Of a stretch of DNA of 64,000 nt, positions 12,706-32,597 are shown one piece after another (the stretch's first letter is position 1; every line of letters begins with the position of its first letter). This DNA is from Clostridia bacterium (GTDB lineage: Bacteria > Bacillota > Clostridia > Oscillospirales > CAG-272). Made by a program: the position numbers and the translations under genes. The notes under the pieces were generated by a model. It was given only the letters and a program-made list of their open reading frames with translations. It searched no databases and was not told the origin of the DNA. Location: contig JAFTZI010000056.1 in assembly GCA_017461055.1 (NCBI GenBank), positions 19,175 through 83,174 on the forward strand, in the 5' to 3' direction.

Positions 12706-12714
12706 TAAAACAAG

Positions 12715-12749: not shown

Positions 12750-12783
12750 TGCTTTGTTATTCATTTTTACTTACAGAAATTTT

Positions 12784-14397: not shown

Positions 14398-14399
14398 AA

Positions 14400-15245: not shown

Positions 15246-15277
15246 AAGTAAGCTCCTTTCGAAAAATATTCCTACTT

Positions 15278-15306
15278 ATTTTAACATAAAAACAAGAAAA
15301 TGTCAA
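15278..15306 (-). promoter_or_regulatory. Putative sigma-A promoter of the CxxC-protein / NapH-TlpA operon
   Basis: Minus strand TTGACA (15306-15301), 17 nt, TAAAAT (15283-15278), 32 nt upstream of the ATG at 15245. Confidence 0.5.
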
Positions 15307-15644
15307 TAAGAAGGAAATATGTAGCTTTAAAAAGTAAAAAAAAGCAAAAAACAGACACAGGGTGGGCAAAATACAAGCTTTTTTCAATGGCTTTTTCTCG
15401 TAATCAATCTAAATTTTGAGAAAAAATCAAAATAATGAAACAAAAAGTAAATTTCTTGTCACAAAAAAGTAACAAAGTAATCTTTACACAAAAAAGCCTG
15501 CGTTTTTTACAAATGCCAAAAATAGTCAAAAGCCTATTGAACTCTAAGGCTTTTAGTGTTTTTTCGTTTTATCATAGTAAATCAAAAGCAAGGTAAATTG
15601 ATGAAGCTTTTGGCCTAATATTATATAATAGTTATAAAAAAGCC

Positions 15645-15673
15645 TTGCAATTTACTTACCAATATGTTAAAAT
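15645..15673 (+). promoter_or_regulatory. Putative promoter of the protease/Opp operon
   Basis: TTGCAA (15645-15650), 17 nt, TAAAAT (15668-15673), about 60 nt upstream of the ATG at 15736. Confidence 0.4.
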
Positions 15674-15735
15674 TAATCACGTATGTAATGTTTTATATTT
15701 TATACACGCAATAATATAAGGAAAGGCGAAACAAA

Positions 15736-18700
15736 ATGAAAAGAAACCGAATCGTAAGATTAGCCGTTGCCACCGTATCGGTAATACTGCTAATCGCCAT
15801 GATGCTCTCAATTTGTACATCAGCACTTGGCGTGTCCACATCAGCGCCAACGTACATAAACGAGTATAATGGAAACCTTAAAACAAATATCGAGCAATTT
15901 TTTAACAACAGCGTGGTACAAAAGCTGCCAAGCACTGTTAAAAACACAGATACAATATCTGTAATTGTCGATCTTGACTTGCCTGCCATTATGGACGCAT
16001 ATGACTGGTCAGGCTCTGATTTGTCTATGGCTGAGTATGCTTCTACAAGTGAGGCTAAGGCGCTTATCAGCGAGGCTTTAAAGGAGAAGACAAGCATTCT
16101 TGAAAAGCTTGACGAAAAGGGAGTTAAATATACTCAAGGCGCTAATTACTCCACAATATTCAGCGGCTTTGAAATTTTAATTCAAGCCTGTGATTTTGAC
16201 ACTGCCTGCGACGCAATCGGCACAAAGGCAACTGTTATGGTTGGTGAGGTATATGCACCTGCTGAATCAAAGCTTGTAGAAAATGACGTTAACTTCTATG
16301 AGGATACGGGTATTTTCAACAGCTCCGATTTCAAGTATCAGGGTCAGGGTATGGTTATAGCTGTGCTTGACACAGGTCTTGACTATACACATACTGCATT
16401 CCTTGACAGTAACTTTACAGCAGACAGAGAAAAGCTTGGCTTAACAAAGCAAATGGTGGCTGACCTCTTGCTCGCTAAGGACACTCGCGCTGAATACTAT
16501 ATGCAGGGCGTTACTGCCGACGACCTTTATGTAAGCGACAAGGTTCCGTTTGCATTTGACTATGCTGACGGTGACGCTGACGTTTACTCACTGCATAACA
16601 ACCACGGAACTCACGTATCCGGTGTTATTGTAGGTAATGATGACGTAATTACAGGCGTTGCTCCGCAAGCACAGGTAGTTTCTATGAAAACCTTCTCCGA
16701 CGTTGAGGAGTCAGCTCGTACCTCTTGGATTCTTTCTGCTCTTGAGGACTGCGTGCTCTTAGGCGTTGACGTTATCAATATGTCACTTGGTACAGCTGCA
16801 GGCTTCAGCCGTGAAAGCGATAAGGAAGCGATAAACGGTAACGTATATCAGAAGATAAGAGATGCAGGCATTAGCTTGGTTGTTGCCGCATCAAACAGCT
16901 ACAACTCTGCATACGGCTCCGATAAAAACGGTAACTTGGGTCTTACATCTAACCCCGATACATCAACAGTCGGTTCACCTTCAACCTATGAGGGTGCTAT
17001 GTCTGTTGCATCTATCGACGGTAAAAAGACTCCTTACATCTTATACAACGGCTCAATAATCTACTTTATTGAGGCAACAAATGCTTCAAGCAAGGAAAAG
17101 GACTTCTTTGCTGAGGTCTTAAAGGACAGAATACCCGAGGACTCAAACGAAGCCATTGAGCTTGAATATGTTGTAGTTCCCGGTGCGGGCCGTCCTGCTG
17201 ACTATATGGGCTTAGACGTAACAGGAAAAATTGCCTTGGTTCGCCGTGGCTCAACAACCTTCGAGGAAAAGGCGCAGGCTGCTCAAAAGGCAGGCGCTTC
17301 TGCAATCATCATTTACAACAACGTATCCGGTGATATTAAAATGAACGCGGGTACAATTACAATTCCAATCTGTTCAATTTCACAGGACGACGGTGAATTG
17401 TTAGCCGCAAGCGAAACAGGAAAAATTAAAATCAGTCGCGCGCAAACATCGGGCCCATTCATTTCCGACTTCTCATCCTGGGGTCCTGCGCCTAACCTGA
17501 GCATTAAGCCTGAAATTACAGCTCACGGAGGTAACATCCTTTCTGCTGTAACAGGTGGCGACTATGACCGCTTGTCAGGTACATCAATGGCGTGTCCTAA
17601 TATGTCAGGTGTTATTGCGCTTTTGCGTCAATACGTGACAAACGAATACGATAGCATTAAAAATATGCCCGAGGGCGCTGAAAAGTCCAAGGCAACAAAC
17701 GCGCTTGTTAACTGCCTCTTAATGTCAACTGCCGATATTATGAGAAACAAGAGCGACTTACCGTACGCTGTAAGAAAGCAAGGCGCGGGTCTTGCCAATC
17801 TTGTAAAGGCATCAACAACAACAGCTTACATTCAAACCTACGACAGAGAAGATGGCTCTGTTATGGACAAGGCAAAAATTGAGCTTGGCGATGACAAGGA
17901 AAAAACAGGCGTATACACACTTAAATTCGCAATAAACAACTTCGGCTCAGCAGCACTTACATATGATTTAACGGCTCAGGTGTTGACAGAGGGCGTAAGT
18001 GACACAGAAACAGTTCGCGGTGAAACAACCGTAACCGAGGAGGGCTATCTCCTAAGCGGTGCCACATTTGAGGTAACAAAGGTAACAAACGGTACACAAA
18101 ACGGTAATAAGGTAAGCGTAAGCGGCGGCAACATAGCAGTTGTTGAGGCAAAGATAACTCTTTCCGATGCAGATAAGAAATATCTTGACGAGTCCTTTGA
18201 AAACGGTATGTACGTTGAAGGCTTTGTATGCTTAAAGGCTACCAGCGGAACAACCATTGACCTAAACGTTCCATTCCTTGCCTTCTACGGTGACTGGACA
18301 AAAGCACCTCTTTTCGATACAGATTACTATGAAACAAACCCCGATGAGATTGACGACGGTGTTTCACAGGACGATAAGGTAATGGCTGACGCTTATGCCA
18401 CACGTCCTATAGGCGGTCTTTACTCCGACTACGTAAGCTACTTGGGCGCATACTACTTCCAGCAGAATCCAAACGATAAGGTTATTGCCGCAAACAAAGA
18501 TTTTATCGCTCTTTCCTATGCTGACGAAACGGTTCACTCCTTCCGCTTCGTTTGGGCAGGCCTTTTAAGAAATGCCGCTAAGATGGTTATTACCATTACA
18601 AACGATGCAACGGGCGAGGTAATTTTTGAGACAGAAAAGCACGACATCCGTAAATCCTACGGTGACGGTGGCTCTATCTACCCCGCAAACATTGAGGTTG

Positions 18701-21700
18701 AGTTCGATACTCAGGATTATGACCTTCCGAACAATGCGCAGCTTTCAGTTAAAATCGAGGGCTACCTTGACTATGAGGACGGAGGCAGTGACACTAACTT
18801 AAAGAATACCTTTGAGTTCCCAATCGTAATTGACTATCAGGCTCCAAGCATTACAGATTGCGAGTTCTACACAGAATACGATAAGGACTTAAAGAAGAAC
18901 AGACTCTTTGCAAGAGTTGGCGTTTACGACAACCATCACGCAATGGCGCTTAACTTCGGTTATGTAAGAGAAGCAACAGATGAAGAGTACGCGCAGGACG
19001 GATACAAAAACCTTATGGAATCCTTCGAAAGCTACTTAACACCTGTATATTCAACCTTCAACAATACAACATATGTTGAGTATGAGCTTACAGATTACAT
19101 CTATGATATTAAGGAAAAATCAGCACATCCAAACTCCTTCGTTGTAACCTGCTATGACTACGCACTTAATACGACAACCTATGAAATAGGCTTGCCGGAT
19201 GAATATGTAGACTTCTACTTTGAGGAATCAAAGAACGAAACAAACTACTTAAGCGTAAATCAGGTATATCAGCTTAACCCAATCCTTTATCCAAATGAGG
19301 AAACAAATCCTGACGGAACTGACAACCCTTGGGGTGAGCTTGTTGAGTTCAACTCCACAAGACCGAGAGTTGCAAAGATAGTAAACGATAAGGTTGTTGC
19401 ATTGAGCCCGGGTGTTACTTGGATTCAGGCTAAGGATGCAAACGGTCACGTAGCACAGTTCCACGTAACGGTTCTCGGCAGCGAGGATGTAAAGAACAAT
19501 CCAAGCCTTGCCCAATATTACAAGGAATACGATAAGCCGGTAGCTGACGAATTTGACGTAATAGGCTACAAAACCTTAAAGGCATTCTACTACCTTAACA
19601 ATGATGAAAGAGATATAGGCTCAACAGGAGATCTTAAGCTGTTTGACGGTGGCTTTGACTTGAAGATGTTCCCATCCGAATCAGTTATGCTTAAGTCAAG
19701 GTTTACACCGTATCTCGATTCAGCAAAAATAGCATATCAATCCAATAATACAAATATTGTAGAAATTGATGAAAACGGCGTTGTAGTTGCCAAGGCAGAG
19801 GGATATGCCTCTGTAACAGTAAGAGTTCTTCTCGATGGAGAAAGAACCTACTTCTCGGAAACCGTTAACGTTGAGGTTAAAAATCCTTGGATAAGAACAG
19901 GCCCGTCACTTACTCACTACTTTGGTGCAGGCGGCACTGTAACAGTTCCGACCAACCTGAACCTTACAGAAATCGGTGCTTACGCATTTTCTAACTTTGA
20001 CTATGTAGAAAAGGATGAAAATGACGAAATCTCCGAGGAGGATCCAAACCTTACAAAGCAGGAATTCCTTGGTGAAAATACAGTAACAAAGGTAATTATT
20101 CCTATCGGTGTTGAAAAAATCGGCCCATATGCCTTTGCAGGACTTACAGCGCTTGAAGAGGTTGTAATTCCTTACACAGTAGAGGCAATTGAGTATGGCG
20201 CATTCTTCGGATGCACAAGCTTAAGAACCGTGTCCTATATGGATGAAAACGGACAGGTATTGCCGTCCGTTGGCTTAAAGAACGTTAAGCTTATCAATAT
20301 GGGCGCATTCCAAAACTGTAATTTAAGAGGAGAGCTTGTTCTTGACAATGCACGCGCAATCGGTGATTACGCATTTGCAGGTAACACAACTCTTTCCTCA
20401 GTAGTAATTCCACAAACACTTCAGTCCATTGGCGGATACGCATTCTATGGAAATAAGTCCCTTACAAGCGTAACAGTTCACGCTGAGCTTGTTAAGTACG
20501 GTCCGTACGTATTTGCAGGCTGCTCAAAGCTAAGCTCTATGACAACACTTAACAGTGATGACGAGTCAATAGGAACAATCAATGCAGCAGTTATCCCACA
20601 GGGCGCTTTCTATGGCTGTGAAAGGCTTACAAGCGTAACAATCGGTAAGGACGTAAATGTAATTGGCGAATACGCCTTTGCAAGAACAGGTGTTAAGAGA
20701 TTTATAGTAGCTGAGAATAATTCAGTATTCAAGCCACAAAATAACACATACATAGTATCCAAGGACGGACAAGAGCTTGTATTGGTAGCTCCTACCATAG
20801 AGGGTACATTTGAGCTTAAGGGCGTTACCTCAGTAGGTATCGGCGCATTTGCTGAAAACACAGGCATCGTTGAAATTAAGCTCCCCGACGTTACAAGTGT
20901 AGACAAATATGCCTTTGCTGAATGTCACAAGCTTCAAAGCATAACTCTCGGTAAGCTAACCGAGATTGGAGAATATTCATTCTTCGGCACAGCAATTACC
21001 GCTCATCCATCATTTGACAGTGTTAGCTACATAGCTCCGTACGCATTTTCAAATACAAAGCTTACAAGCGTTGTAATTCCAAATGGCGTAACTGTTGGAG
21101 AGGGCGCATTCTGCGAGTGCGACAAGCTTGAAAGCGTGGTTATCGGTAACGATGTCGTGCTTGAAATGGGCGCGTTTATGTACAACAACAGAATTAGCGG
21201 CAGATGGCAGCTATTGTACTACGTAAAGAACAATGTGCGCCATTACTATTACGATTACATTTCACCGCTTAAATCACTTACAATCGGCGACAATGCTGTA
21301 ATCGGTGAGTCTGCATTTATGGGCGCTGCCGATCTTGAAGCAGTAACACTTGGCGAAAATATTGTAATAGGCAATCAGGCATTCTACAATGCTTGCTCAT
21401 TAAAGACAATTCTTGATAAGAACGGTAATAACGTTGGATTTAAGAATGTAATTTCTATTGGCGAGCTTGCCTTTACAGGTGATGAGCAATTCGTATTTAC
21501 AAACTCATTTGATACTCCGGACTCCGCAAATATAATGATTTCGGGCGATTCTTATGTATATCACTACTACGGTGCTGCCTTTGAGGAAATCGACTTAACT
21601 AATGTCAAGGAAATAGGCAAGGGTGCTTTTGCATACTGTACACAGCTTGTAAGTGCAAATGTAGGCGAACGTAAGGACATACCCGAGCTTGCATTCTATG

Positions 21701-23154
21701 GCTGCGAAAAGCTTGAAAGCATTAATCTTGAGGGAGTAGAAACAATTGGTAATAACGCATTTGCAAATACTTCTTCATTAAAGAACGTTGATTTGTCCGC
21801 CGCTGTAAGCATTGGCGAATATGCCTTTACCTTAAGCGGACTTGAAAGCGTAACACTTAACGCAAACGGTACAGATATCGGCACAGGTGCATTTGCATAC
21901 TGCAAGTCATTAAATAATGCTGAAAATCTCGGTGCTTCACGCAATATTGCTTCATACGCATTTGCATATTCAGGACTTACAAGGGCTGATATAACAAGTG
22001 CAGAAACACTTGGAGATCACGTATTTATTAAGGAAGCCTTAACTCCGTTTGATTTGACCTATGGCAAGAGCCTTAAGTCAGTTGGCGATAACCCATTCGC
22101 TCTTTGTGCAATAGCTCCGTTTGTTGAAAAGACAAATTATGAGTTTAACGGTACAAGCTATGTGGTTGAAAATTACACCTTTAATATGACAGATACAGTA
22201 AAGGTTGTTAACGGCTCTCTCTACTGCAAGGTAGACTCAGGCTATGAGCTTATTACATATGCAGGCACTGAGGGTAAAAATGTTGTAGTCGTTGCCGAGG
22301 ACACAGTAAGAGTAAGCTCTTATGCCTTCGCAGGCTCCGATGTTGTGACAGTTCAGCTTCCACACTCATTAAATGCAATAGGACACAAGGCATTCTATGG
22401 CTGTGATAGCCTTGAAACAGTAATATTTAAGAGCTACGTAGCTCCTGTTCTTGAGGAACAGCTTGACGTAGCATACTACAACACATACAGTAACATTCCG
22501 GGTAACGGTACATATGAAATACCGCTCAACAACGGTGATGTTCTTGTTAAGGAAGGCTTAGGAATAGTAGACTTCTATATGTGGAATGTTCCTTCGGGAC
22601 TTTACTATGATGTATTCTTTGGCGCAAGCTTTATGAATAACATCGGACACATAGACAGACAGCTTGTTATGATAAGACCTTCAAACGGTCAATACTACGA
22701 AACCTTTATTTACGGTCAATACTTTGACAAGGTAATAGACGGCGCAATTTCCGCAACCGATGAAACCTTGGCAGCAATTGCCGCAATTGCTCAGCTTCCA
22801 AGAGTAATCAAGCTTACACACGAGCCGCTTGTTATAGCAGCACGTGAGGCATATAACAAGATAGCTACAAGAGACCAGCAGGCGCTTGTAACAGATTACG
22901 CTACCTTGGTATCGGCTGAAAACAAGATTCAACGTCTGAAGGACGAGGCTTCAGCCCCCGATATAACACCTCCGGACGACACCAATACACCAAATGACAA
23001 TCCGATTGATACAGTAGAACCGCAAAAAGACAGGTCAACAGTTGGCTATGTAATAGCAATTATTGTATTGTCAGTAATGCTTGTTGGCGGTGCGGTAGCT
23101 TCCGTATTGTTTATGGTAAAGATGAAAAAGCGCTACGATAGACCCCTTATGTGA
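15736..23154 (+). CDS. Giant (2472 aa) cell-envelope subtilisin-like serine protease (peptidase S8 with PA-domain insert) fused to Big_2-like domains, a very long BspA-type leucine-rich-repeat array and a C-terminal TM anchor
   Basis: N-terminal signal/anchor RLAVATVSVILLIAMMLSICTSALG. Catalytic motifs: VIAVLDTGLD (Asp codon 16369-16371), HNNHGTHVSG (His 16603-16605), LSGTSMACPNMSG (Ser 17584-17586). PA-like insert GKIALVRRGSTTFEEKAQAAQKAGASAIIIYNN. Big_2-like VALSPGVTWIQAKDANGHVAQFHVTV. LRR_5-type repeats (IGxYAFxxCxxLxSVxIPxxV) from about 19960 to 22440. Pro-rich stalk plus TM VGYVIAIIVLSVMLVGGAVASVLFMV, then KMKKRYDRP. Confidence 0.9.
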   Translation: MKRNRIVRLAVATVSVILLIAMMLSICTSALGVSTSAPTYINEYNGNLKTNIEQFFNNSVVQKLPSTVKNTDTISVIVDLDLPAIMDAYDWSGSDLSMAEYASTSEAKALISEALKEKTSILEKLDEKGVKYTQGANYSTIFSGFEILIQACDFDTACDAIGTKATVMVGEVYAPAESKLVENDVNFYEDTGIFNSSDFKYQGQGMVIAVLDTGLDYTHTAFLDSNFTADREKLGLTKQMVADLLLAKDTRAEYYMQGVTADDLYVSDKVPFAFDYADGDADVYSLHNNHGTHVSGVIVGNDDVITGVAPQAQVVSMKTFSDVEESARTSWILSALEDCVLLGVDVINMSLGTAAGFSRESDKEAINGNVYQKIRDAGISLVVAASNSYNSAYGSDKNGNLGLTSNPDTSTVGSPSTYEGAMSVASIDGKKTPYILYNGSIIYFIEATNASSKEKDFFAEVLKDRIPEDSNEAIELEYVVVPGAGRPADYMGLDVTGKIALVRRGSTTFEEKAQAAQKAGASAIIIYNNVSGDIKMNAGTITIPICSISQDDGELLAASETGKIKISRAQTSGPFISDFSSWGPAPNLSIKPEITAHGGNILSAVTGGDYDRLSGTSMACPNMSGVIALLRQYVTNEYDSIKNMPEGAEKSKATNALVNCLLMSTADIMRNKSDLPYAVRKQGAGLANLVKASTTTAYIQTYDREDGSVMDKAKIELGDDKEKTGVYTLKFAINNFGSAALTYDLTAQVLTEGVSDTETVRGETTVTEEGYLLSGATFEVTKVTNGTQNGNKVSVSGGNIAVVEAKITLSDADKKYLDESFENGMYVEGFVCLKATSGTTIDLNVPFLAFYGDWTKAPLFDTDYYETNPDEIDDGVSQDDKVMADAYATRPIGGLYSDYVSYLGAYYFQQNPNDKVIAANKDFIALSYADETVHSFRFVWAGLLRNAAKMVITITNDATGEVIFETEKHDIRKSYGDGGSIYPANIEVEFDTQDYDLPNNAQLSVKIEGYLDYEDGGSDTNLKNTFEFPIVIDYQAPSITDCEFYTEYDKDLKKNRLFARVGVYDNHHAMALNFGYVREATDEEYAQDGYKNLMESFESYLTPVYSTFNNTTYVEYELTDYIYDIKEKSAHPNSFVVTCYDYALNTTTYEIGLPDEYVDFYFEESKNETNYLSVNQVYQLNPILYPNEETNPDGTDNPWGELVEFNSTRPRVAKIVNDKVVALSPGVTWIQAKDANGHVAQFHVTVLGSEDVKNNPSLAQYYKEYDKPVADEFDVIGYKTLKAFYYLNNDERDIGSTGDLKLFDGGFDLKMFPSESVMLKSRFTPYLDSAKIAYQSNNTNIVEIDENGVVVAKAEGYASVTVRVLLDGERTYFSETVNVEVKNPWIRTGPSLTHYFGAGGTVTVPTNLNLTEIGAYAFSNFDYVEKDENDEISEEDPNLTKQEFLGENTVTKVIIPIGVEKIGPYAFAGLTALEEVVIPYTVEAIEYGAFFGCTSLRTVSYMDENGQVLPSVGLKNVKLINMGAFQNCNLRGELVLDNARAIGDYAFAGNTTLSSVVIPQTLQSIGGYAFYGNKSLTSVTVHAELVKYGPYVFAGCSKLSSMTTLNSDDESIGTINAAVIPQGAFYGCERLTSVTIGKDVNVIGEYAFARTGVKRFIVAENNSVFKPQNNTYIVSKDGQELVLVAPTIEGTFELKGVTSVGIGAFAENTGIVEIKLPDVTSVDKYAFAECHKLQSITLGKLTEIGEYSFFGTAITAHPSFDSVSYIAPYAFSNTKLTSVVIPNGVTVGEGAFCECDKLESVVIGNDVVLEMGAFMYNNRISGRWQLLYYVKNNVRHYYYDYISPLKSLTIGDNAVIGESAFMGAADLEAVTLGENIVIGNQAFYNACSLKTILDKNGNNVGFKNVISIGELAFTGDEQFVFTNSFDTPDSANIMISGDSYVYHYYGAAFEEIDLTNVKEIGKGAFAYCTQLVSANVGERKDIPELAFYGCEKLESINLEGVETIGNNAFANTSSLKNVDLSAAVSIGEYAFTLSGLESVTLNANGTDIGTGAFAYCKSLNNAENLGASRNIASYAFAYSGLTRADITSAETLGDHVFIKEALTPFDLTYGKSLKSVGDNPFALCAIAPFVEKTNYEFNGTSYVVENYTFNMTDTVKVVNGSLYCKVDSGYELITYAGTEGKNVVVVAEDTVRVSSYAFAGSDVVTVQLPHSLNAIGHKAFYGCDSLETVIFKSYVAPVLEEQLDVAYYNTYSNIPGNGTYEIPLNNGDVLVKEGLGIVDFYMWNVPSGLYYDVFFGASFMNNIGHIDRQLVMIRPSNGQYYETFIYGQYFDKVIDGAISATDETLAAIAAIAQLPRVIKLTHEPLVIAAREAYNKIATRDQQALVTDYATLVSAENKIQRLKDEASAPDITPPDDTNTPNDNPIDTVEPQKDRSTVGYVIAIIVLSVMLVGGAVASVLFMVKMKKRYDRPLM

Positions 23155-23189: not shown

Positions 23190-24569
23190 ATGAACAAGAG
23201 AATAAGAGTAATTTTATTAGCAGCTATTGCATTAATTACCGTATTGCTTGTTACATCCTGTGATGATTCTCCGTATGGCACGTATGATAACTTCGGCTAC
23301 GGTGTCAGCGTTAAATACGATGCCAACGGCGGAACATTTACAGCAGGAACATCAGTAATAGTAGATACATACAGCTTAGAAAGCTTGCCTACAATGAATG
23401 GCAAAAAGGTTGCCAAGCTAATGACTCCCGACGATGAGGGCAGAGGCTCAGGTAACTCCTTCATTCCAAGTAAAACAGGCTATACCTTTGTTGGCTGGTA
23501 TGCAGAATGTAATAGAACCGAAAGCCCCAGTGGCGAAACCACATATGAATATTCAAAAATGTGGGATTTTAAAAACGATCGCTTAGAGCTTGATCCAAAT
23601 AAGGAATACACAGCATCAGAGCCTGTGCTCACACTTTATGCTGCATGGATTCCCGAATTCAAGTTTGAATTTTATTCAATTGATGACCCAAATACTCTTC
23701 TAAAGGAATATAAGGTAGCTCCTTATACTGAAATTAATGTTCCTGCCTGGGACAAAAAGAGCAGCAAGGGTGCAATTAAAATGTATCAATTCCCTGAAAT
23801 TGACGGAAAAACCTTTGAGGCTGTATATGCAGACCCTGAGGGAACAGTTAAGCTGAGTGGGGAAACAATAATGCACTCAGGACAATTGAATTATGATAAT
23901 GCAACAGCAACCGACCCTGTAATGAAGCTTTACATTGAAACAATAGACGGTGAATGGTATCACATCTTTACCGCTAACCAGCTTAGGAACATTTCCTCAA
24001 ACGGTAATTATGTAATTGAAAACGATATTGACCTTGAAAATGTTACAAGAAACTGGGCAAGCTACTTAACCTACGGTAAGTTTACAGGTAAGCTTATAGG
24101 TAAGGAGCAGGAAAACGGTGAAGCTGTTAAGCTAAAGAATATAAGCTTCTATCAGGCTACAATAGGCGCTGACAAATATGCAACAGGCTTATTTGGACAG
24201 ATAACCTCAGAGGCAGTAATAGAAAACATTGCCTTTGAAAATGTAACTATGAATATGGACACAGGCGCACCTATGAGAAAGGATGTAAGCTTCGGCTTGC
24301 TTGCCGGTATCATTGATGCAAATGCAACCTTAAACGGTGTTACCGTAACAGGAACAGTCAAGGTTAGCACAAAGTGCGTATTCTCACCTGATACAAGCTC
24401 ATACAGAACAGATGCAGGCTATTCCATAGGCTTGATTTGCGGAATGGGCGCAACACACGGAATTGACTATTCAGGCATACTTGTTGAAATAGTAAATGAC
24501 GGTGATGCACAGACAATCGAGTATGAGCTTGACGGTAACAGCTTAGTGCTTATCGTTAACAAACAATAA
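23190..24569 (+). CDS. Lipoprotein with a Listeria-Bacteroides (InlB B-type) repeat and a GLUG-like C-terminal region
   Basis: MNKRIRVILLAAIALITVLLVTSC/DDS lipobox. YDANGGTF...GYTFVGWY...WDF...LTLYAAW is the List_Bact repeat pattern. ATGLFGQITSEAVIENIAFENVTMN...SFGLLAGII is GLUG-like. Starts 36 nt after the protease stop with no terminator between. Confidence 0.7.
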   Translation: MNKRIRVILLAAIALITVLLVTSCDDSPYGTYDNFGYGVSVKYDANGGTFTAGTSVIVDTYSLESLPTMNGKKVAKLMTPDDEGRGSGNSFIPSKTGYTFVGWYAECNRTESPSGETTYEYSKMWDFKNDRLELDPNKEYTASEPVLTLYAAWIPEFKFEFYSIDDPNTLLKEYKVAPYTEINVPAWDKKSSKGAIKMYQFPEIDGKTFEAVYADPEGTVKLSGETIMHSGQLNYDNATATDPVMKLYIETIDGEWYHIFTANQLRNISSNGNYVIENDIDLENVTRNWASYLTYGKFTGKLIGKEQENGEAVKLKNISFYQATIGADKYATGLFGQITSEAVIENIAFENVTMNMDTGAPMRKDVSFGLLAGIIDANATLNGVTVTGTVKVSTKCVFSPDTSSYRTDAGYSIGLICGMGATHGIDYSGILVEIVNDGDAQTIEYELDGNSLVLIVNKQ

Positions 24570-24612: not shown

Positions 24613-27276
24613 ATGAAAAAGAGAATTCTTTCTTTGATACTCTGCATTGCAATGTGTATGAGTCTTGTTGGAATTTTTGCAGGCTGTGGCGGAGATGAAA
24701 ATACTGATCCGAACAACCCAAATAACGGTTCACAGAGCACAGGCTTGCCTGCCAACAAGGACGCGCTTGTAATTATGTCAGAGGAGCTTGACGGATTATT
24801 CAATCCTTTCTATTCAACCTCCGGCGCTGACAGTACAATAGTATCAATGACACAAATCGGTATGCTTACATCTAAGTATGTAAATGGCGAGGTAGAGGTT
24901 GCCTTCGGTGAAAACGAGGCAGTTGTAGCCAAGGATTATATGTCAAAGTATGATGAAGCAACAGAAACAACAACCTACACCTTCGTTTTGAAGAACGGTA
25001 TTAAGTATTCAGACGGAGCGCCTCTTACAATGGAGGACGTGCTTTTCAACCTTTACGTTTACTTAGACCCTGTTTACGCAGGCTCAGCAACACTTTATTC
25101 AACAAAGATTCAAGGCTTAACTGAGTACAGAACTCAGGAGCAAAGCTCTGACACAGGCGTAGATGCTGACAGCCAGCTTTCCGAAACTGCAACAGCAAGC
25201 GCTATGAACCGTGTTAACGAGCTTGTAAACCTTTTCAAATCAGTTGGTAAAACACAGCAGGACGGCGTATTTTACGCAGACGTTCAGATGATGACAGATG
25301 CTATCAACGCATTGTCCGATAGCCAGATAAGTGACGGTTATAAGGAAGCGGTTACACACGACCCATCCTCTATTTCTCACGAGGATTGGAAAAAGCAGCT
25401 TCTTGAGGACTATGAAAATATCTGTAAGCTTTATAAGGAAGAGCTTCAAACTGCATACAACACAGCAAAAGAGGCTTATACAGAATCTCCTTATAAGGAG
25501 CACGATGAGTTTAAGGATCAGCTCTTCTGCTTTATGGCTTCACAGGGCTATGTTGAAATTACATACGTTAAGGTTAACGGAAAAGACGACAAGAGCCAGA
25601 TTGAAAGCGTAAGAGCGCAGTACGGTTCTACAATTGATACAATGGAAGAGGCAATTGAGTATGCTTACAATGATACAATCTCAAGCGCACTTCCTGCGGT
25701 ATTCTCATACACAAGCTCTGCACAAAAGGTAATTAACGAGTACGTTTCCAACGCAAAGGACGTAATCCTTCGCGGTAAGGTGCAGGCAGACGGCTCACTT
25801 AAGTTCGATAGCATTTCAGGTATCGTTTCCCTTGGTCACACAGAAGACAAGAAGGGTACAACAATTGAAGTAAACGGAACAACATATAAGATTGCATCCG
25901 CTCACAATAGCGACGGTACAGTAGCTAACGCAGATGAGTATGACGTTCTTCAAATCACAATTGACGGTATTGACCCTAAGGCTGTATGGAACTTTGCATT
26001 TGCAGTAGCTCCACAGCACTACTACGGTAAGGGCTCAAGCGTTGGTGTTGACATTGAAAACAACCAGTTCGGTGTTGAATGGGGTTCATTCGAGTTTATG
26101 AAAGAAATCATTCAATCCCCACTTAACATCAAGGTTCCAATGGGCGCAGGCGCTTATAAGGCAACAGACCGTTCCGACGCAGATAACCCTGCCGGCAACG
26201 CATTCTATAACAGTAACGTAGTATATTTCAAGGCTAACAACTATTTTGACACAGTAGGCGAGGGCATTGAAAACGCTAAGATTCAAAAGGTACGCTATCA
26301 GGTAGTAAGTGCATCTAACGCACTTCCAATGCTTGAAAGCGGCTCTATCCACTATGCAACACCTCAATTGACAGACGCTAACTTTGCAAAGATTGAGGCT
26401 CTTGACAAAATCGGCGCTAACTATATTCTTAATGACCAGCTCGGCTACGGTTATATCGGTGTTAACGCATCTAAGGTTACAGACATTAACTTGCGTAAGG
26501 CAATTATGTGTGCAATGAACACAGCATTAGCGCTTGACTACTACCGTCCGGGTACAGCAGAAAGAATTTTCTGGCCAATGTCAACTGTAAGCTGGGCATA
26601 TCCAAAGGATGGCTCAGGCAAGCTTGACGAAAACAACGAGCGTGATTATCCGTTGCCTGACTTCAATGAAGAAGACGCAACAATTCTTATTGAGGACTAT
26701 ATGCAAAGAGCAGGCGTTACAGCAGGCTCAAGCAAGCTTAAGTTCACATTTACAATTGCAGGCTCAAATCTTCAGGATCACCCAACCTATAAGACCTTCA
26801 GAGACGCAGCGGCGCTTCTTAACAAATTAGGCTGGAGCATTACTGTACAGGCAGATACACAGGCGCTTACAAAGCTCTCCACAGGCTCACTTGAGGTATG
26901 GGCAGCAGCTTGGGGCTCAACAATTGACCCTGATATGTATCAGGTTTACCACAAGAACTCAACAGCTACAAGCACACTTGCTTGGGGCTACCCAACAATC
27001 AAGAGCTCAGGCTCAAAGGAAGAGCAGGACATCTTGAACGAGCTCAGCAAGGTAATTGAAGAGGCTCGTGAAACAGACGTACGTGCTGACAGAGCAGAGC
27101 TTTACAGAGAAGCAATGGGCTATGTTCTTGACCTTGCAATTGAGCTTCCTGTATATCAGCGTAGCGTAGTTTACGTATATAATGCAAACGTAATTGATGC
27201 TTCCTCATTACCTGAGGCATCTAACCCATATTCCTCACCTCTTGACAGAATTTGGGAACTTGAATTTGTGAAATAA
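24613..27276 (+). CDS. ABC transporter substrate-binding lipoprotein, peptide/nickel (family 5, OppA/DppA-like), unusually long at 887 aa
   Basis: MKKRILSLILCIAMCMSLVGIFAGC/GGDEN lipobox; AAGGAG RBS. Family-5 SBP-like N- and C-terminal lobes (YTFVLKNGIKYSDGAPLTMEDVLFN...; GYGYIGVNASKV...; AAAWGSTIDPDMYQVYH), interrupted by a roughly 300-aa insert. Confidence 0.8.
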   Translation: MKKRILSLILCIAMCMSLVGIFAGCGGDENTDPNNPNNGSQSTGLPANKDALVIMSEELDGLFNPFYSTSGADSTIVSMTQIGMLTSKYVNGEVEVAFGENEAVVAKDYMSKYDEATETTTYTFVLKNGIKYSDGAPLTMEDVLFNLYVYLDPVYAGSATLYSTKIQGLTEYRTQEQSSDTGVDADSQLSETATASAMNRVNELVNLFKSVGKTQQDGVFYADVQMMTDAINALSDSQISDGYKEAVTHDPSSISHEDWKKQLLEDYENICKLYKEELQTAYNTAKEAYTESPYKEHDEFKDQLFCFMASQGYVEITYVKVNGKDDKSQIESVRAQYGSTIDTMEEAIEYAYNDTISSALPAVFSYTSSAQKVINEYVSNAKDVILRGKVQADGSLKFDSISGIVSLGHTEDKKGTTIEVNGTTYKIASAHNSDGTVANADEYDVLQITIDGIDPKAVWNFAFAVAPQHYYGKGSSVGVDIENNQFGVEWGSFEFMKEIIQSPLNIKVPMGAGAYKATDRSDADNPAGNAFYNSNVVYFKANNYFDTVGEGIENAKIQKVRYQVVSASNALPMLESGSIHYATPQLTDANFAKIEALDKIGANYILNDQLGYGYIGVNASKVTDINLRKAIMCAMNTALALDYYRPGTAERIFWPMSTVSWAYPKDGSGKLDENNERDYPLPDFNEEDATILIEDYMQRAGVTAGSSKLKFTFTIAGSNLQDHPTYKTFRDAAALLNKLGWSITVQADTQALTKLSTGSLEVWAAAWGSTIDPDMYQVYHKNSTATSTLAWGYPTIKSSGSKEEQDILNELSKVIEEARETDVRADRAELYREAMGYVLDLAIELPVYQRSVVYVYNANVIDASSLPEASNPYSSPLDRIWELEFVK

Positions 27277-27296: not shown

Positions 27297-28292
27297 ATGT
27301 TAAAGTACATTCTTAAAAGATTAGCATTATCAATATTGATACTTATCGGCGTATCCTTGATAATTTATTTTCTGATTCGTTTAATGCCTGTTGACTTTAT
27401 TCAGGATAAAATCAACGCAATGAATCAGGGCGGTGCAACAGTACCGCAGGAAACTGTTGATAAGATGTACGAAATGTATGGACTTGAGGCTAATCCTACT
27501 TTCTTAGGTATCATTAAGGGTTATTTAACCTGGCTAAAGGCGCTATGCCGTTTCGATCTTGGTACAAGCTTCGTTTACGGCATACCTGTAGCCGAGGTAA
27601 TTGTTGACCATATGGGCGTTTCCTTTGCAGTAGCCTTAATCGCAACTGTATTTGAATTTTTAATAGCAATCCCACTTGGTATAACAGCAGCAACACATCA
27701 GTATTCAATAAGAGACTATGTTGTTACAATCTTCGTAATGATAGGTATTTCTTTACCGTCCTTCTTCTTTGGACAAATGCTGAAGGACTGGTTTGCAATA
27801 AAGCTGGACATTTTCCCTGTATCAGGACTTGTAGACGCAAGCGGCTCTGCAACAGGACTTGCATTATTGCCTGACTACTTTATGCATATGTTCTTGCCGA
27901 TTTTGACCGTAGTAATCCTTTCCATAGGCGGTCGAATGAGAATGACAAGAACAAATATGCTTGAGGTTATGAACTCAGACTATATTCGTACAGCAAGAGC
28001 AAAGGGCTTAAAGGAAAGTAAGGTTATTTACAAGCACGCATTCCGTAACACACTTATTCCAATAGTAACAACCTTGGCAGCATTGTTGCCATCCTTGTTC
28101 TCAGGTGCTATTATCACTGAGCAGGTATTTGACCTGCCCGGTATCGGTAACGTAGCCTTGAAGGCAATGAACAAGGGCGATATTCCATTCATAATGGGCT
28201 ACAATATGTTCTTAGCAATTTTGAGCGTAGTAGGTGTATTGTTATCAGACCTTATGTACGCAGTTGTTGACCCACGTGTTAAGCTTGAGTAA
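27297..28292 (+). CDS. ABC transporter permease (OppB/DppB-like)
   Basis: MLKYILKRLALSILILIGVSLIIYFLIRLMP plus the EAA-loop region YIRTARAKGLKESKVIYKHAFRNTLIP. 331 aa. Confidence 0.9.
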   Translation: MLKYILKRLALSILILIGVSLIIYFLIRLMPVDFIQDKINAMNQGGATVPQETVDKMYEMYGLEANPTFLGIIKGYLTWLKALCRFDLGTSFVYGIPVAEVIVDHMGVSFAVALIATVFEFLIAIPLGITAATHQYSIRDYVVTIFVMIGISLPSFFFGQMLKDWFAIKLDIFPVSGLVDASGSATGLALLPDYFMHMFLPILTVVILSIGGRMRMTRTNMLEVMNSDYIRTARAKGLKESKVIYKHAFRNTLIPIVTTLAALLPSLFSGAIITEQVFDLPGIGNVALKAMNKGDIPFIMGYNMFLAILSVVGVLLSDLMYAVVDPRVKLE

Positions 28293-28305
28293 GGGGGAAG
28301 TTTAA

Positions 28306-29538
28306 ATGGCTAATTTAGAATACATTAATCAAATAGACCTGACAGCTTCCGCCGAAAATATATCCGAAAGCGGTGTAACTCTTTCTCCAAACGGTGAAAT
28401 TAAAAGAAATTACGACCCTGAGGAATTAAGAGCAAAGCGCTTAAAGGAAATTGAAGAAAAGAAACGTATTGAAGAAGAGCAAAGAATACAAGACGAGCTT
28501 AAAAAGCAGGAAGAGGACAACAAAAAAGCAGAGGAAGAGGACGAGCCATTAGATAAAAATGTAAAGCTTATGTCCCCAACCCGTATGGTTTTGCGTAGAT
28601 TTTTCCGTTCCAAGCTCAGTATTGTGGGTCTTATAATGGTTGTTGGACTTTTCATATTCAGCTTCTTTGGACCTCTTGTTTATAATGAATGGGGCGAAAC
28701 AGAGCTTGATGAAAGCGGAAAGACCATTTATACAACAACAGAAATTGAAATGACTGACGACAACGGAGATAAATATATCATTTATCAGACAATCGAAAAA
28801 GAGGTTAAGGATAACTTCTTGGCTGCTCCCTCAAAGGACCACATCTTAGGTACAGATAATGAGGGCTACGATATTTTCGTAAGACTTATGTACGGTGGCA
28901 GAATTTCCTTGACAGTTAGCTTTATCGCAGTATTTGTAATTACAATACTCGGTGTTGTCTTAGGCGGTGTAGCAGGCTACTTCGGCGGCGCAATTGATAA
29001 TATTATAATGAGAATTTGTGATATTTTAATGTGCTTACCTGGTATTCCTATTCTCCTTATAATCAGTACTATTCTTGATGCCGCAGAGGTTGACGGAAAG
29101 TACCGTATTTATTTACTTATGATATATCTTACCTTGTTCTCCTGGACAGGAACCGCACGTCTTGTAAGAGGTCAGATTCTTTCCTTAAGAGAGCAGGAGT
29201 ATATGGTAGCCGCTGAGGCTATGGGCTACTCCACAGGAAGAAAGATATTCAAGCACTTAGTACCAAACGTAATGCCACAGCTTATAGTTCAAATGAGCTT
29301 AAGCCTTGGTAGTATGATTTTGTACGAGGCAACCTTGTCCTACCTGAACCTTGGCGTTAAGCCACCGTATGCAGCGTGGGGTACAATGATTAACATTATT
29401 TCAACCAATATGGATATTTTGCAGAACCACTTCAACGTATGGGGACCTGCGGGTATTTGTATTGTAATTGCCGTTCTTGGCTTTAACTTTGTGGGCGATG
29501 GCTTACGAGATGCCCTTGACCCTAAGATGAGGAGATAA
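28306..29538 (+). CDS. ABC transporter permease (OppC/DppC-like) with a roughly 95-aa charged N-terminal extension
   Basis: Core: LGTDNEGYDIFVRLMYGGRISL..., REQEYMVAAEAMGYSTGRKIFKHLVPNV. N-terminal extension EELRAKRLKEIEEKKRIEEEQRIQDELKKQEEDNKKAEEEDE (K/E-rich). Confidence 0.9.
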   Translation: MANLEYINQIDLTASAENISESGVTLSPNGEIKRNYDPEELRAKRLKEIEEKKRIEEEQRIQDELKKQEEDNKKAEEEDEPLDKNVKLMSPTRMVLRRFFRSKLSIVGLIMVVGLFIFSFFGPLVYNEWGETELDESGKTIYTTTEIEMTDDNGDKYIIYQTIEKEVKDNFLAAPSKDHILGTDNEGYDIFVRLMYGGRISLTVSFIAVFVITILGVVLGGVAGYFGGAIDNIIMRICDILMCLPGIPILLIISTILDAAEVDGKYRIYLLMIYLTLFSWTGTARLVRGQILSLREQEYMVAAEAMGYSTGRKIFKHLVPNVMPQLIVQMSLSLGSMILYEATLSYLNLGVKPPYAAWGTMINIISTNMDILQNHFNVWGPAGICIVIAVLGFNFVGDGLRDALDPKMRR

Positions 29539-29541
29539 CAT

Positions 29542-30900
29542 ATGAGCATTATAGATAAACTCAAAAGCCTCATTTCAAAGGAAAAGAATGGTGATGAGGT
29601 AAAAACAGTAAATTCCTATCTTTCAGGTAAGGAAATTCGCAAAATCGCCAAGGAAAACAGCAAGGTTATGAAGCGCTTAGAGGCGTATAAGTATCGTAAG
29701 GCAGATGAAAGCGAATTTATAACTGAGCTTAAAGATAGCGCAAACATTTTGGAAATTGAGGATTTACACACATACTTCTTTACAGACCAAGGCGTTGTAA
29801 AGGCGGTAAACGGTGTTTCCTTCAATGTTCCGAAAAATGCAACCGTCGGTGTCGTTGGCGAAAGTGGATGCGGTAAGAGTGTAACAAGTATGTCTGTTAT
29901 GCGTCTTTTACAGGGCCCGCAGGGTCAGATTTACTCAGGTGACATTCGCTTTAAGGCAAATGACTATAAGTACGACGCAAGCGGCAAAATGATTCCCGTT
30001 TACGAAACAGACGAAAACGGTGAAATTGTTTATGAAGAAAAGGTTAACAAAAAGGGAGAGACTGTAAAGGAGCCCGTTCAAAAGAGAAACGAAGATGGCG
30101 CCTTACAGTATGAAATGGAGGAAAAGATTTACGATATTGCTAAAATGCCGATTAACGAAATACACCGTATTCGCGGCAAGCAAATCGCAATGATATTCCA
30201 AGAGCCAATGACATCCTTAAACCCCATATTCACAATCGGCGAACAGCTTGACGAGGTAACCTTTATTCACGTGCCCGGCGCAACAAAGCAAATGGCAAAG
30301 GATAAGTCAATTGAAATGCTTAACCTTGTCGGCATTGCTATGCCGGAAAGAGTGTATAAGTCCTACCCACACGAGCTGTCAGGCGGTATGCGTCAAAGAG
30401 TTATGATAGCTATGGCGCTTGCCTGCAACCCACGCTTGATTATAGCTGACGAGCCTACAACAGCTCTTGACGTTACAATCCAAGCACAAATTCTTGATTT
30501 ATTACGTGACCTTAAGGAAAAAATTGACGGTTCAATTCTTCTTATCACTCACGACTTAGGTATAATTGCCGAAATGGCTGACTATGTTGTGGTTATGTAT
30601 GCAGGAAGAGTAATTGAAAAGGGAACGGTTTCTGAAATTTTCCACAATCCTATGCACCCATATACCATAGGCTTGCAAAAGTCAAAGCCAACTCTTGAAT
30701 CAAATACAGATACACTTTTCAATATTCCGGGTAACGTACCAAACCCAATTAATATGCCTAACCACTGCTATTTCAAGGAAAGATGCTCCAAGTGCATTCA
30801 CAAATGCTCAGGTGATTATCCTCCAATGGTACAGGTTAGCCCAACACACTATGTAGCTTGTCATTTATACGAAGAGGAGAAGGAGGAGCAAGATGGCTGA
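29542..30900 (+). CDS. ABC transporter ATP-binding protein (OppD/DppD-like) with an N-terminal extension and an internal insert
   Basis: Walker A GESGCGKS, signature LSGGMRQR, Walker [12 protein letters not shown], and an oligopeptide C-terminal Cys-rich tail. There is a roughly 65-aa N-terminal extension and a roughly 60-aa insert ([55 protein letters not shown]) between Walker A and the Q-loop. Confidence 0.9.
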
Positions 30901-32194
30901 AGATAAGATTTTAGAAGCGCAAGAAGCAGAAAACTCCATTTCCTGTGATGATGTGGCAGAGTGCGTTGAAAACGAAATCACTCAAGAGGTTAGCGAAACA
31001 GTATCCGAGGAAGTGACCGAAGAGGTATCCGAGGAAGCAACAGAAGAAGCAACCGAGGAAGTAATCGCAGAGGAACCGACCGAAGAAGCAACGGCAGAGG
31101 AAGGCGAGCAGGACACACAGATGCCTGTTGACGAGTCTACTCAATATGATGACGAGGCTGAAAAGGCAAAATACTTAGCCGCACGCAAGGCGCAAGCGGA
31201 GGAGGACTTTAAAAAGCCCTTTGATAAGGATGCGCTTTTAGAGGTTCGTCATTTAAGAAAGGCATTCCCAATTAAAAAGACCATAACAGGTAAGGTTTTA
31301 CAGGAGCTTGTAGCAGTTGATGATATTTCCTTCAAGCTTCACGCAGGCGAAACCATTGGTATCGTTGGCGAAAGCGGATGCGGTAAAACCACAATGGGAA
31401 GAACCGTTCTTAAGCTACATAAATCCAACGGCGGTCAAATTATATTTGACGGTCAGGATATAACCGATTTAAAGCCAAGCCAAATGAGAGAAATACGTAA
31501 GAAAATGCAAATCATTTTCCAAGACCCGTATTCCTCACTCCCACCGAGAAGCACAGTTGGCGGTATCTTGTCAGAGCCTGTAAATGTTCATAAAATCGTT
31601 CCTAAGGATCAGGTCAAGGACTACGTTCTTGAATTAATGGACAAGTGCGGCTTGCGTGATTATTATTACGAAAGATATCCACACGAGTTCTCAGGCGGTC
31701 AGCGTCAAAGAATTTGTATTGCCCGTGCCCTTAGTGTTAATCCAAAGCTTGTAATTTGCGACGAGCCTGTTTCAGCTCTTGACGTATCAATTCAGGCACA
31801 GATTATCAACCTTTTAAAGAGCCTTCAGGAATCAATGAACTTAGCATATTTGTTTATTTCACACAATTTAAGCGTTGTTAAGTTTATCTCCGATAAAATC
31901 GGCGTTATGTACTTAGGCTCAATGGTTGAATTTGGCTCAAAGACCGATATATTTGCAAATCCGCTTCACCCTTATACAAAGGCGCTGTTCTCAGCTATAC
32001 CGAATCCTAATCCCGATATTAAGATGAAGCGTATAGCCTTGGCAGGTGATATTCCATCTCCTGCTAACCCACCAAGCGGATGCCGCTTCCATACCCGTTG
32101 CCCTTACGCAAAGGAAATATGCAAGCACGTAACCCCTGAGTATAAGGAGTACGAAACAGGTCACTTTGCAGCCTGCCATTTGTTAGAGGAGTAA
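30893..32194 (+). CDS. ABC transporter ATP-binding protein (OppF/DppF-like) with a roughly 110-aa acidic repeat N-terminal extension
   Basis: Overlaps the upstream gene by 8 nt. Walker A GESGCGKTT, signature FSGGQRQR, Walker B VICDEPVSALD. N-terminus ITQEVSETVSEEVTEEVSEEATEEATEEVIAEEPTEEATAEEGEQD (nt about 30983-31108). Confidence 0.9.
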   Translation: MAEDKILEAQEAENSISCDDVAECVENEITQEVSETVSEEVTEEVSEEATEEATEEVIAEEPTEEATAEEGEQDTQMPVDESTQYDDEAEKAKYLAARKAQAEEDFKKPFDKDALLEVRHLRKAFPIKKTITGKVLQELVAVDDISFKLHAGETIGIVGESGCGKTTMGRTVLKLHKSNGGQIIFDGQDITDLKPSQMREIRKKMQIIFQDPYSSLPPRSTVGGILSEPVNVHKIVPKDQVKDYVLELMDKCGLRDYYYERYPHEFSGGQRQRICIARALSVNPKLVICDEPVSALDVSIQAQIINLLKSLQESMNLAYLFISHNLSVVKFISDKIGVMYLGSMVEFGSKTDIFANPLHPYTKALFSAIPNPNPDIKMKRIALAGDIPSPANPPSGCRFHTRCPYAKEICKHVTPEYKEYETGHFAACHLLEE

Positions 32195-32197: not shown

Positions 32198-32434
32198 ATG
32201 AAGGAAAAAAAGAAAAAGGAAAAGGTAACCTATATTGACGACGGACGCACAATTGCAGATATGTCAAATGTAGGCTATGGTAAATACATAAGCAGGGACG
32301 GAAAAAGGAAATCCACCTTCAAGGAAAAATGGACTACCTACTGGGAAGCAGTCAGAATGATGCTTCTTCCAATGCTTGTCGTAATTGGTATAATTACCTT
32401 AGCATACCTTATTATGTACTTTTCTTTAAAATAA
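32198..32434 (+). CDS. Small single-TM protein (78 aa) closing the ABC operon
   Basis: Starts 3 nt after the ATPase stop. Lys-rich N-terminus MKEKKKKEKV and one TM helix MMLLPMLVVIGIITLAYLIMYF. Followed by a strong terminator. No family recognised. Confidence 0.5.
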   Translation: MKEKKKKEKVTYIDDGRTIADMSNVGYGKYISRDGKRKSTFKEKWTTYWEAVRMMLLPMLVVIGIITLAYLIMYFSLK

Positions 32435-32457
32435 GAATTACTTTAATAAAGAAAAAA

Positions 32458-32488
32458 GCACAGAGCCAAGAAAGCTCTGTGCTTTTTT
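32458..32488 (+). terminator. Rho-independent terminator ending the protease/Opp operon
   Basis: GCACAGAGC (32458-32466), caagaaa, GCTCTGTGC (32474-32482), TTTTTT (32483-32488). Confidence 0.85.
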
Positions 32489-32597
32489 CATATAAACCTG
32501 TATGGCAGGGCTTGCTTCTGTGCCGAAATGCTAACCTGCAAAAATTAATAATTTGTAAGTTGGGGGCTTGCTCCTGCTGAAAGCTGCGGTAACTCCT

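Follow-up and report, generated by a model that had tools for sequence, protein, structure and literature searches.

A subtilase of the cell-envelope protease kind with a leucine-rich-repeat array, encoded in a conserved operon with an Opp-type importer in gut Clostridia

Background

Does a surface protease that carries a very large leucine-rich-repeat (LRR) array use it to seize one particular macromolecule, or does it serve a more general breakdown of protein? The question is raised by a stretch of 64,000 nucleotides (nt) from Clostridia bacterium (Oscillospirales, CAG-272; assembly GCA_017461055.1, contig JAFTZI010000056.1, forward-strand positions 19,175 to 83,174), called here the window, in which a single gene encodes a subtilase fused to a BspA-type LRR array. 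A sequence-only reading of this gene had proposed the first possibility, that is, that a specific macromolecule is captured in a targeted way instead of protein being degraded in bulk. That proposal did not fit with the strict association of the gene with an oligopeptide-type (Opp) importer, nor with the low conservation of the polar residues of the LRR array. We consider it probable that the protein is a cell-envelope serine protease of the lactocepin, C5a-peptidase and SpyCEP kind, which would form the extracellular front end of a peptide-acquisition operon.

Results and discussion

A classical protease head on an unusual stalk

The catalytic triad of the protein is intact, in the Asp-His-Ser order: D212 lies in VLDTGLD, H290 in HNNHGTHVSG and S617 in LSGTSMACP. 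These are canonical subtilase motifs, and the three residues are exactly those that had been picked out from the sequence alone. The triad is kept in 120/120 orthologues, the oxyanion residue N387 (in AASNS) is invariant among orthologues, and the Pfam Peptidase_S8 profile matches at 4e-43 (148 bits, for a cutoff of 21.8). By its triad motifs, oxyanion Asn and Pfam score, the protein is therefore a member of subtilase family S8. The insertion of a protease-associated (PA) domain, as in lactocepins and C5a-peptidase-type enzymes, was correctly predicted; it scores 67 bits (cutoff 23.9) and aligns with the PA insert of 7edd and 5xya.

Residues 196-866 align by sequence with streptococcal cell-envelope proteases, namely 7edd (1.4e-60, deposited as 'C5a peptidase'), 5xya (deposited as 'Chemokine protease C', of SpyCEP type), 6vjb and 1xf1, and this similarity stops around residue 866 of 2,472. 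The best NCBIfam match, NF040553, covers residues 100-866. It describes the SGO_0316/SGO_0317 family of LPXTG-anchored serine peptidases, of which our protein is not a member: it reaches 238.9 bits where the cutoff is 1400, and it has no LPXTG. For residues 690-1420, an AlphaFold2 (AF2) model with a mean predicted local distance difference test score (pLDDT) of 71 contains five beta-sandwich domains, and its best Protein Data Bank (PDB) folds are the fibronectin type III (Fn3) regions of SpyCEP (6vjb, 4.6e-17) and of C5a peptidase (ScpA, 1xf1), with values from 4.6e-17 to 1e-13. The first of the Fn3 domains is also found by a Pfam scan of protein fragments, as fn3_5 (38.5 bits, above the cutoff of 27.6). 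As to the Big_2-like domains announced downstream of the head, two beta-sandwich domains are indeed present in the model; the label itself is loose, the Pfam Big_2 match at residues 1316-1362 being weak (20.9 bits, under the cutoff of 22.8). PF02368 is precomputed for many orthologues.

Just two segments of the protein are hydrophobic, the N-terminal signal peptide and a C-terminal transmembrane (TM) helix. Between the signal peptide, whose likely cleavage site was placed by the -3/-1 rule, and the catalytic domain lies a region that is conserved in orthologues and was found by phmmer in 51/78 long distant representatives. By analogy with other cell-envelope proteases it is a putative propeptide. 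Neither the propeptide (I9) nor the C-terminal domains gave any Pfam match, even at E up to 1. At the other end, the proline-rich stalk, TM helix and KMKKRYDR stop-transfer sequence described from the sequence were all recovered, the linker being rich in Pro, Asp and Thr. The TM helix is present in 117/120 orthologues. LPXTG was found nowhere in the protease, in agreement with the first inspection, and none was found close to the C-terminus in the 120 orthologues. A loose regular expression gave 22 matches in orthologues, all of them an internal 'NLPATG' in the cap domain, more than 210 amino acids (aa) from the C-terminus, so that an LPXTG sorting signal was rejected.

The LRR array had been placed at 19960-22440 with 'dozens' of repeats; it was found at 19948-22455 with about 30 rungs, and the word is fair. 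Pfam LRR_5 (PF13306) matches it in 8 stretches (8.6e-106, 349 bits), with a repeat spacing of 22-23 residues. Residues 1380-2440 were modelled with AF2 from an alignment of 38 sequences (mean pLDDT 87); the array forms a continuous solenoid over roughly residues 1421-2231, with pLDDT mostly above 90, and its Foldseek matches are the BspA-type LRR proteins 4fs7, PcpA 4cp6, Faecalibacterium prausnitzii 4gt6 and TpLRR 6mlx. The LRR_5 repeats hold many conserved cysteines.

The first 1,150 residues thus make up a classical head of a cell-envelope protease, with a pre-pro region, an S8 domain with its PA insert and three Fn3 domains, while the C-terminal 1,300 residues are a stalk built unlike that of any described cell-envelope protease. 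As had been noted from the sequence, the C-terminal part is not the usual wall-spanning and sortase module; the LRR array and the TM anchor stand in its place.

The fusion is conserved in at least 80 species

A fusion of this size could be an assembly artefact, with the LRR part a separate gene in related genomes. The identical protein was found on seven independently assembled contigs, and more than 120 full-length homologues (2,390-2,600 aa, 52-100% identity) have the same Pfam content. We then made a species survey with one genome per GTDB species, which gave 396 relatives, the best 80 of which were taken further. All of these 80 are metagenome-assembled genomes (MAGs), each of a different GTDB species, and apart from a few copies cut at contig ends their proteins span nearly the whole query length. 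They are labelled Oscillospiraceae, Faecousia, Acutalibacteraceae, Christensenellaceae (Borkfalkia), Stercoripulliclostridium and Avispirillum, and they come from the hindgut of roe deer, sheep, goat, buffalo and cattle, and from rabbit and chicken. An artefact is ruled out by the independent contigs and by the full-length orthologues in at least 80 GTDB species; across more than 80 species, the LRR part was never seen as a separate gene. The fusion is thus genuine and old, and with the triad kept as well, neither of the two findings that the sequence-only reading had named as refuting it was made.

More distant members were collected by an exhaustive HMMER search with the family-specific middle region (residues 861-1400), which gave 74 clusters at 50% identity (E <=1e-30). 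Among the 78 long representatives at this level of clustering, 75 retain the S8-PA unit, the first Fn3 domain, the middle region and the LRR array; the C-terminal TM helix is present in 68, and LPXTG in none. One peculiar arrangement occurs in a high-GC MAG from rabbit gut (locus L082), where a 2,038-aa ORF (5960-12076, +) lies directly 5' of a 2,500-aa orthologue. The related-locus match (10001-20455) reaches into this ORF, whose product could be a tandem paralogue or a different LRR protein. Where the proteins of the family have a database name at all, it is 'leucine-rich repeat protein' or 'hypothetical protein', and a full-text literature search found no paper describing the protease family or the operon.

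The protease gene opens an operon with an Opp-type importer

On the 3' side of the protease gene, seven genes follow on the same strand with gaps of no more than 44 nt (Table 1). They encode an accessory lipoprotein, a giant OppA-type binding protein, the permeases OppB and OppC, the ATPases OppD and OppF, and a small protein with a counterpart of 76-85 aa beside the Opp genes of related loci, matched by position and size. A strong hairpin lies after the last gene; inside the operon, terminator-like matches have short stems of 5-8 bp and do not outnumber those of shuffled sequence.

Synteny was analyzed by tblastn of the operon proteins against 81 related loci of other organisms. The protease, lipoprotein, OppA and OppBCDF genes are colinear in every locus with at least 9 kb of downstream DNA (59/59), and the accessory lipoprotein is present in every locus with at least 1.5 kb (71/71). 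Even among very distant members (28-35% identity in the middle region), adjacent Opp genes were found in 3/4, one of which has the transporter upstream instead of downstream. Since the protease is the first gene of a strictly conserved operon with an Opp-type importer, its role is best explained by nutritional proteolysis.

The domain set of the transporter comprises an SBP_bac_5 binding protein, two BPD_transp_1 permeases, one of them with OppC_N, and two ATPases with an oligo_HPY C-terminal domain; judged by this set, it is an ATP-binding cassette (ABC) importer of the Opp/Dpp type (PepT family). The best NCBIfam matches are Opp4A/B/C and OppD/DppF, most of them below the equivalog cutoffs, and they suggest peptides as the probable substrate. 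Both ATPases are unusually long (OppD 452 aa, OppF 433 aa), and OppF has an acidic extension of about 110 aa, rich in Glu, Thr and Ala, before the ATPase domain.

From the domains and the operon together we infer proteolytic activity and a nutritional role, with the following course of events. The signal peptide would export the protease and the C-terminal TM helix would keep it tethered to the cytoplasmic membrane. A long stalk, made of the three-helix bundle, the cap domain, the LRR solenoid and the two Ig-like domains, would hold the catalytic head off the membrane, probably beyond the cell wall. There, the head would cleave extracellular proteins of dietary, host or microbial origin to oligopeptides, which the giant OppA lipoprotein would capture and OppBCDF import, while the accessory lipoprotein of about 450 aa would be a physical partner of the protease at the membrane. 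A PepX-like S15 X-Pro dipeptidyl-peptidase, a kind of peptidase expected downstream of peptide import, is encoded in the window (56218-57813, +).

The small 78-aa ORF within the operon allows another interpretation, in which the protease matures secreted signalling pro-peptides and Opp imports pheromones, in a quorum-sensing-type circuit as in RNPP systems; Opp systems of Bacillota do import signalling peptides. We hold this to be very improbable. The product of the small ORF looks like a membrane protein, neither an RNPP-type regulator nor a pro-peptide gene was seen in the operon, and a multi-domain surface protease of 2,472 aa seems out of proportion for the maturation of a pro-peptide.

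Some candidate elements around the operon were tried. The ATG of the protease gene is preceded by a good Shine-Dalgarno sequence, AGGAAAGG, at the end of a 490-nt intergenic region; promoter-like sites of the kind found in this region are not enriched relative to shuffled sequence. Regulation by a CodY box, as in the lactococcal prtP/opp regulon, was rejected: the site at 15412-15426 has 3 mismatches, and the window contains 10 matches, compared to 9.3 expected. No Rfam match was found anywhere in the window, and hence no riboswitch, T-box or other known RNA in the 490-nt leader. No PrtM-like maturase was found either, and no neighbouring gene has a rotamase domain.

Upstream of the protease is a divergent gene pair (12784-15245, -) encoding a 547-aa protein with Fer4_5 polyferredoxin and redoxin/thioredoxin domains, and a 281-aa protein that ends in a CXXC motif of the CD1871A family. 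The pair may form an extracytoplasmic thiol-redox system. A homologue of the 547-aa protein occurs somewhere in 48/64 related loci and is the immediate upstream divergent neighbour in 29/64, an association too partial for the gene to be counted as a part of the protease system.

Table 1. Coordinates in the window of the protease gene, its domains and the operon
Feature	Position	Strand	Description
Promoter-like site	15645..15673	+	TTGCAA, 17 nt, TG-TAAAAT; about 60 nt 5' of the protease start codon; consensus match only
Protease gene	15736..23154	+	Uninterrupted open reading frame (ORF) of 2,472 codons; S8 cell-envelope protease, LRR-stalked, membrane-anchored
Signal peptide	15736..15831	+	aa 1-32; basic n-region, hydrophobic core, A-L-G before likely cleavage site; hydropathy, -3/-1 rule
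Putative propeptide	15832..16335	+	aa 33-200; conserved in orthologues, no Pfam match
Peptidase_S8 catalytic domain	16342..17790	+	aa 203-685, holds D212, H290, N387, S617; Pfam
PA domain	17185..17403	+	aa 484-556, inserted between catalytic His and Ser; Pfam 1.2e-18
fn3_5 domain	17881..18279	+	aa 716-848, first Fn3 of the cell-envelope protease 'A domain'; Pfam and AF2 strands
Second and third Fn3-like beta-sandwich domains	18538..19191	+	aa 935-1032, 1038-1152; AF2 model
Two Ig-like / Big_2-like domains	19243..19878	+	aa 1170-1247, 1270-1381; AF2 model
BspA-type (LRR_5) solenoid	19948..22455	+	about aa 1405-2240; ~30 rungs, two beta-hairpin insertions; Pfam, AF2, Foldseek
C-terminal alpha/beta cap domain and three-helix bundle	22510..22953	+	aa 2259-2336, aa 2342-2406; AF2, no Pfam match
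Pro/Asp/Thr-rich linker, predicted disordered	22954..23040	+	aa 2407-2435; sequence, pLDDT below 50
C-terminal TM helix and basic cytoplasmic tail	23041..23151	+	TM aa 2436-2461, then KMKKRYDRPLM
Accessory lipoprotein	23190..24569	+	459 aa, lipobox LVTSC, Listeria-Bacteroides repeat, M26_N-like C-terminal region
Giant OppA-type substrate-binding lipoprotein	24613..27276	+	887 aa, lipobox FAGC, ~370-aa insertion between SBP_bac_5 lobes
OppB and OppC permeases	27297-28292, 28306-29538	+	part of 27297..29538
OppD and OppF ATPases	29542-30900, 30893-32194	+	part of 29542..32194; oligo_HPY domains
78-aa protein	32198..32434	+	hydrophobic C-terminal stretch, by eye
Hairpin	32451..32489		17-bp stem, A and T runs on flanks; likely bidirectional terminator closing the operon

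The LRR array has a fixed length and a variable surface

If the LRR array bound one conserved ligand, one would expect its surface to be conserved. Polar residues were taken as a proxy for the surface, and their identity to the reference was calculated over orthologues of at most 60% identity. It is 0.63 in the catalytic domain and 0.57 in Fn1-3, and lowest, at 0.34, in the LRR array. Inside the array, beta-strand positions, which serve as a proxy for the concave face, do not differ from loop positions (0.35 and 0.33). Positions with polar residues conserved at 90% or more number 32 in the 836-residue array. The apolar core residues of the LRR, by comparison, are conserved at 0.60, and the length of the array is tightly held (802-885 residues, median 811). 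This pattern of fixed length, conserved core and variable polar residues fits with a scaffold in which length and rigidity are important. Because the polar residues of the LRR array are the least conserved, 34% as compared to 63% in the catalytic domain, the variability argues against one conserved specific ligand throughout the family.

Taking a rise of about 0.48 nm per rung from standard LRR geometry, some 30 rungs would give a reach of about 15 nm, and the Ig domains, cap and helical bundle would bring the stalk to about 30 nm. Such a stalk would be comparable to the thickness of a Gram-positive wall, the distance that an enzyme anchored in the membrane would have to bridge to act beyond it. 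The LRR array is probably, for the main part, a stalk or scaffold of defined length rather than a specific receptor.

The opposite reading is that the LRR array is a specific receptor, which presents a particular host or dietary macromolecule to the protease, and that the protein works as a targeted processing enzyme or adhesin in the manner of C5a peptidase, SpyCEP or BspA. The closest LRR folds are those of BspA-type proteins (4fs7, PcpA 4cp6, TpLRR 6mlx), several of which are adhesins; ScpA and SpyCEP, the solved proteases that come closest, are virulence enzymes of high specificity; and the conserved number of rungs could mean a defined binding geometry. However, the polar residues behave as described above, the linkage with the Opp importer is strict and survives a rearrangement of gene order, and the occurrence of the family in ruminants, deer, rabbit and chicken makes a single host-specific target unlikely. 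We regard the receptor reading as unlikely. Binding of substrate by the array is possible, and no result obtained here supports it.

Several points nevertheless count against nutritional proteolysis with the LRR array as a stalk. A variable LRR surface is also what would be expected from diversifying, lineage-specific recognition of ligands, and an array of 830 aa is a costly spacer. The transporter scores below the NCBIfam equivalog cutoffs, and nickel, opines and murein peptides are also among the substrates of the Opp/Dpp/Nik family. The propeptide is recognized by no profile. Finally, linkage with Opp is not absolute, and its universality had to be rejected: in the distant member P0177 there are no adjacent Opp genes, and large proteins of unknown function follow the protease.

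The accessory lipoprotein and the oversized OppA

The accessory lipoprotein contains GLFG/GLLAG motifs in its C-terminal region, GLUG-like by eye, and it has no match among PDB sequences even at E = 1. In two protein clusters, P0106 and P0116 (~2,990 aa), it is fused in frame to the protease, the two being linked by a cytoplasmic amphipathic segment (a W-A-K-K repeat) and a second TM helix. The fusion is associated with loci L091 and L092; the P0116 form was recovered from independent assemblies, and OppA lies directly 3' of the fusion gene. Since such an in-frame fusion is classical evidence of functional partnership, the protease and the accessory protein are to be seen as partners, probably physical ones as well. 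In OppA, PDB homologues align up to about residue 173 and again from about residue 555 on, leaving an insertion of some 370 aa that has no family match; the size of the protein is conserved in related loci (844-887 aa).

These observations bring in a further possibility, that protease, accessory lipoprotein and giant OppA form one surface machine, in which the LRR array docks the lipoproteins, for example through the 370-aa insertion of OppA, and peptides pass directly to the transporter. All the parts co-occur invariably, each of the three proteins is tethered to the membrane on its outer face, the accessory protein is joined to the protease by a TM hairpin in two lineages, and the OppA insertion, within a protein of conserved size, is otherwise unexplained. 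If the LRR had a conserved docking surface, patches of conserved polar residues would be expected on it, and the 32 positions given above are few. We hold such a machine, with the array as docking platform, to be unlikely, and the nutritional reading, with the array as a stalk, is the one retained.

Comparison with known systems

A close parallel is with the lactocepins PrtP, PrtB, PrtH and PrtS, and the cell-envelope proteinases of lactococci and lactobacilli are known to work with the Opp system. Common traits are an S8 domain with a PA insert, an N-terminal pre-pro region, an Fn3-type 'A domain', a very large surface-tethered protein and, for the role proposed here, the production of oligopeptides for an Opp ABC importer. 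The differences are in the anchoring part and in the partners. The present protease lacks a B/H/W module and an LPXTG or S-layer-type anchor; in their place stand the two Ig-like domains, the LRR_5 solenoid with its ~30 rungs, the cap domain with the three-helix bundle and, last, the C-terminal TM helix. The PrtP/PrtM pair relies on a PpiC-type maturase, for which there is no counterpart here, the partner lipoprotein having a Listeria-Bacteroides repeat and an M26_N-like region. Protease and opp genes form separate loci in Lactococcus and one operon here, and OppA is about 300 aa longer than usual. By analogy, the protease would work like the lactococcal PrtP/Opp proteolytic system, from outside the described sub-architectures of cell-envelope proteases.

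The best sequence and fold matches, in the catalytic domain, PA insert and Fn domains, are with C5a peptidase (ScpA/ScpB) and SpyCEP. Unlike the present protease, these are LPXTG-anchored virulence factors of narrow specificity, with no LRR and no linked transporter. The repeat type and the solenoid fold are those of BspA-type proteins (BspA, TpLRR, PcpA and the JCSG structures 4fs7, 4gt6 and 4h09), of which 4gt6 is a cell-surface protein of F. prausnitzii, from the same order as the source of the window. These proteins act on their own in binding or adhesion and have far fewer repeats, with chains of about 210-445 aa, compared with an LRR of about 830 aa here, and none is fused to a protease. 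S8 cell-envelope proteases, BspA-type LRRs and Opp are all known kinds; what is new is the way they are combined, along with the TM anchor, the coupling in one operon and an OppA of unusual size.

Other genes in the window

A second LRR fusion, of the bacterial TIR-LRR kind, is encoded at 60284-61948 (+). In this protein of 554 aa, a TIR_2 domain at the N-terminus (aa 37-141, 3.8e-19) is joined to a BspA-type LRR_5 array (4.5e-80); the protein could be a defence protein or an NAD-consuming sensor. The same genome stretch that encodes the surface serine protease also encodes a 469-aa bacterial serpin (48398-49807, +; PF00079, 5.7e-91). Near the start of the window, a cluster of large proteins (2795-6154, 8033-10786 and 11044-12705, +) comprises a 1,119-aa protein with an AhpC/TSA-redoxin domain, a 917-aa protein with SpaA, CarboxypepD_reg and MG-like domains, and a 553-aa sigma-70 protein (regions 2 and 4) with a C-terminal extension of about 390 aa. 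Giant proteins with a redoxin domain are also found upstream in one related locus (L005).

Conclusions

Protein breakdown in the hindgut drives the production of ammonia, branched-chain fatty acids and other metabolites, and to our knowledge the protein-degrading enzymes of the dominant, mostly uncultured hindgut Clostridia are poorly known. The eight-gene cassette described here is conserved, easily recognized and found in at least 80 species-level genomes; beside the LRR-stalked S8 protease it encodes the accessory lipoprotein, the giant OppA, OppBCDF and the small membrane protein. In annotation-based surveys the proteolytic nature of the protease stays hidden, since databases that name it at all use just 'leucine-rich repeat protein' or 'hypothetical protein'. 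The locus also provides a natural case of an LRR solenoid replacing the classical wall-spanning and sortase module of cell-envelope proteases.

The value of the finding lies in annotation, in the ecology of protein fermentation in the gut and in cultivation: the locus can be used to mark lineages that are proteolytic and feed on peptides, and it hints at protein- or peptide-based media. A bolder proposal, which we put forward as speculation with low odds of being right, is that protease, accessory protein and oversized OppA make up a single membrane-tethered 'protein utilisation machine', in which the LRR would be both assembly platform and molecular ruler, peptides would be handed over directly to the importer, and the locus would determine which nutritional niche a large group of hindgut Oscillospirales and Christensenellales occupies, and perhaps why its members resist cultivation. 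If this were true, the machine would be a Gram-positive counterpart, for protein, of the polysaccharide-utilisation locus.

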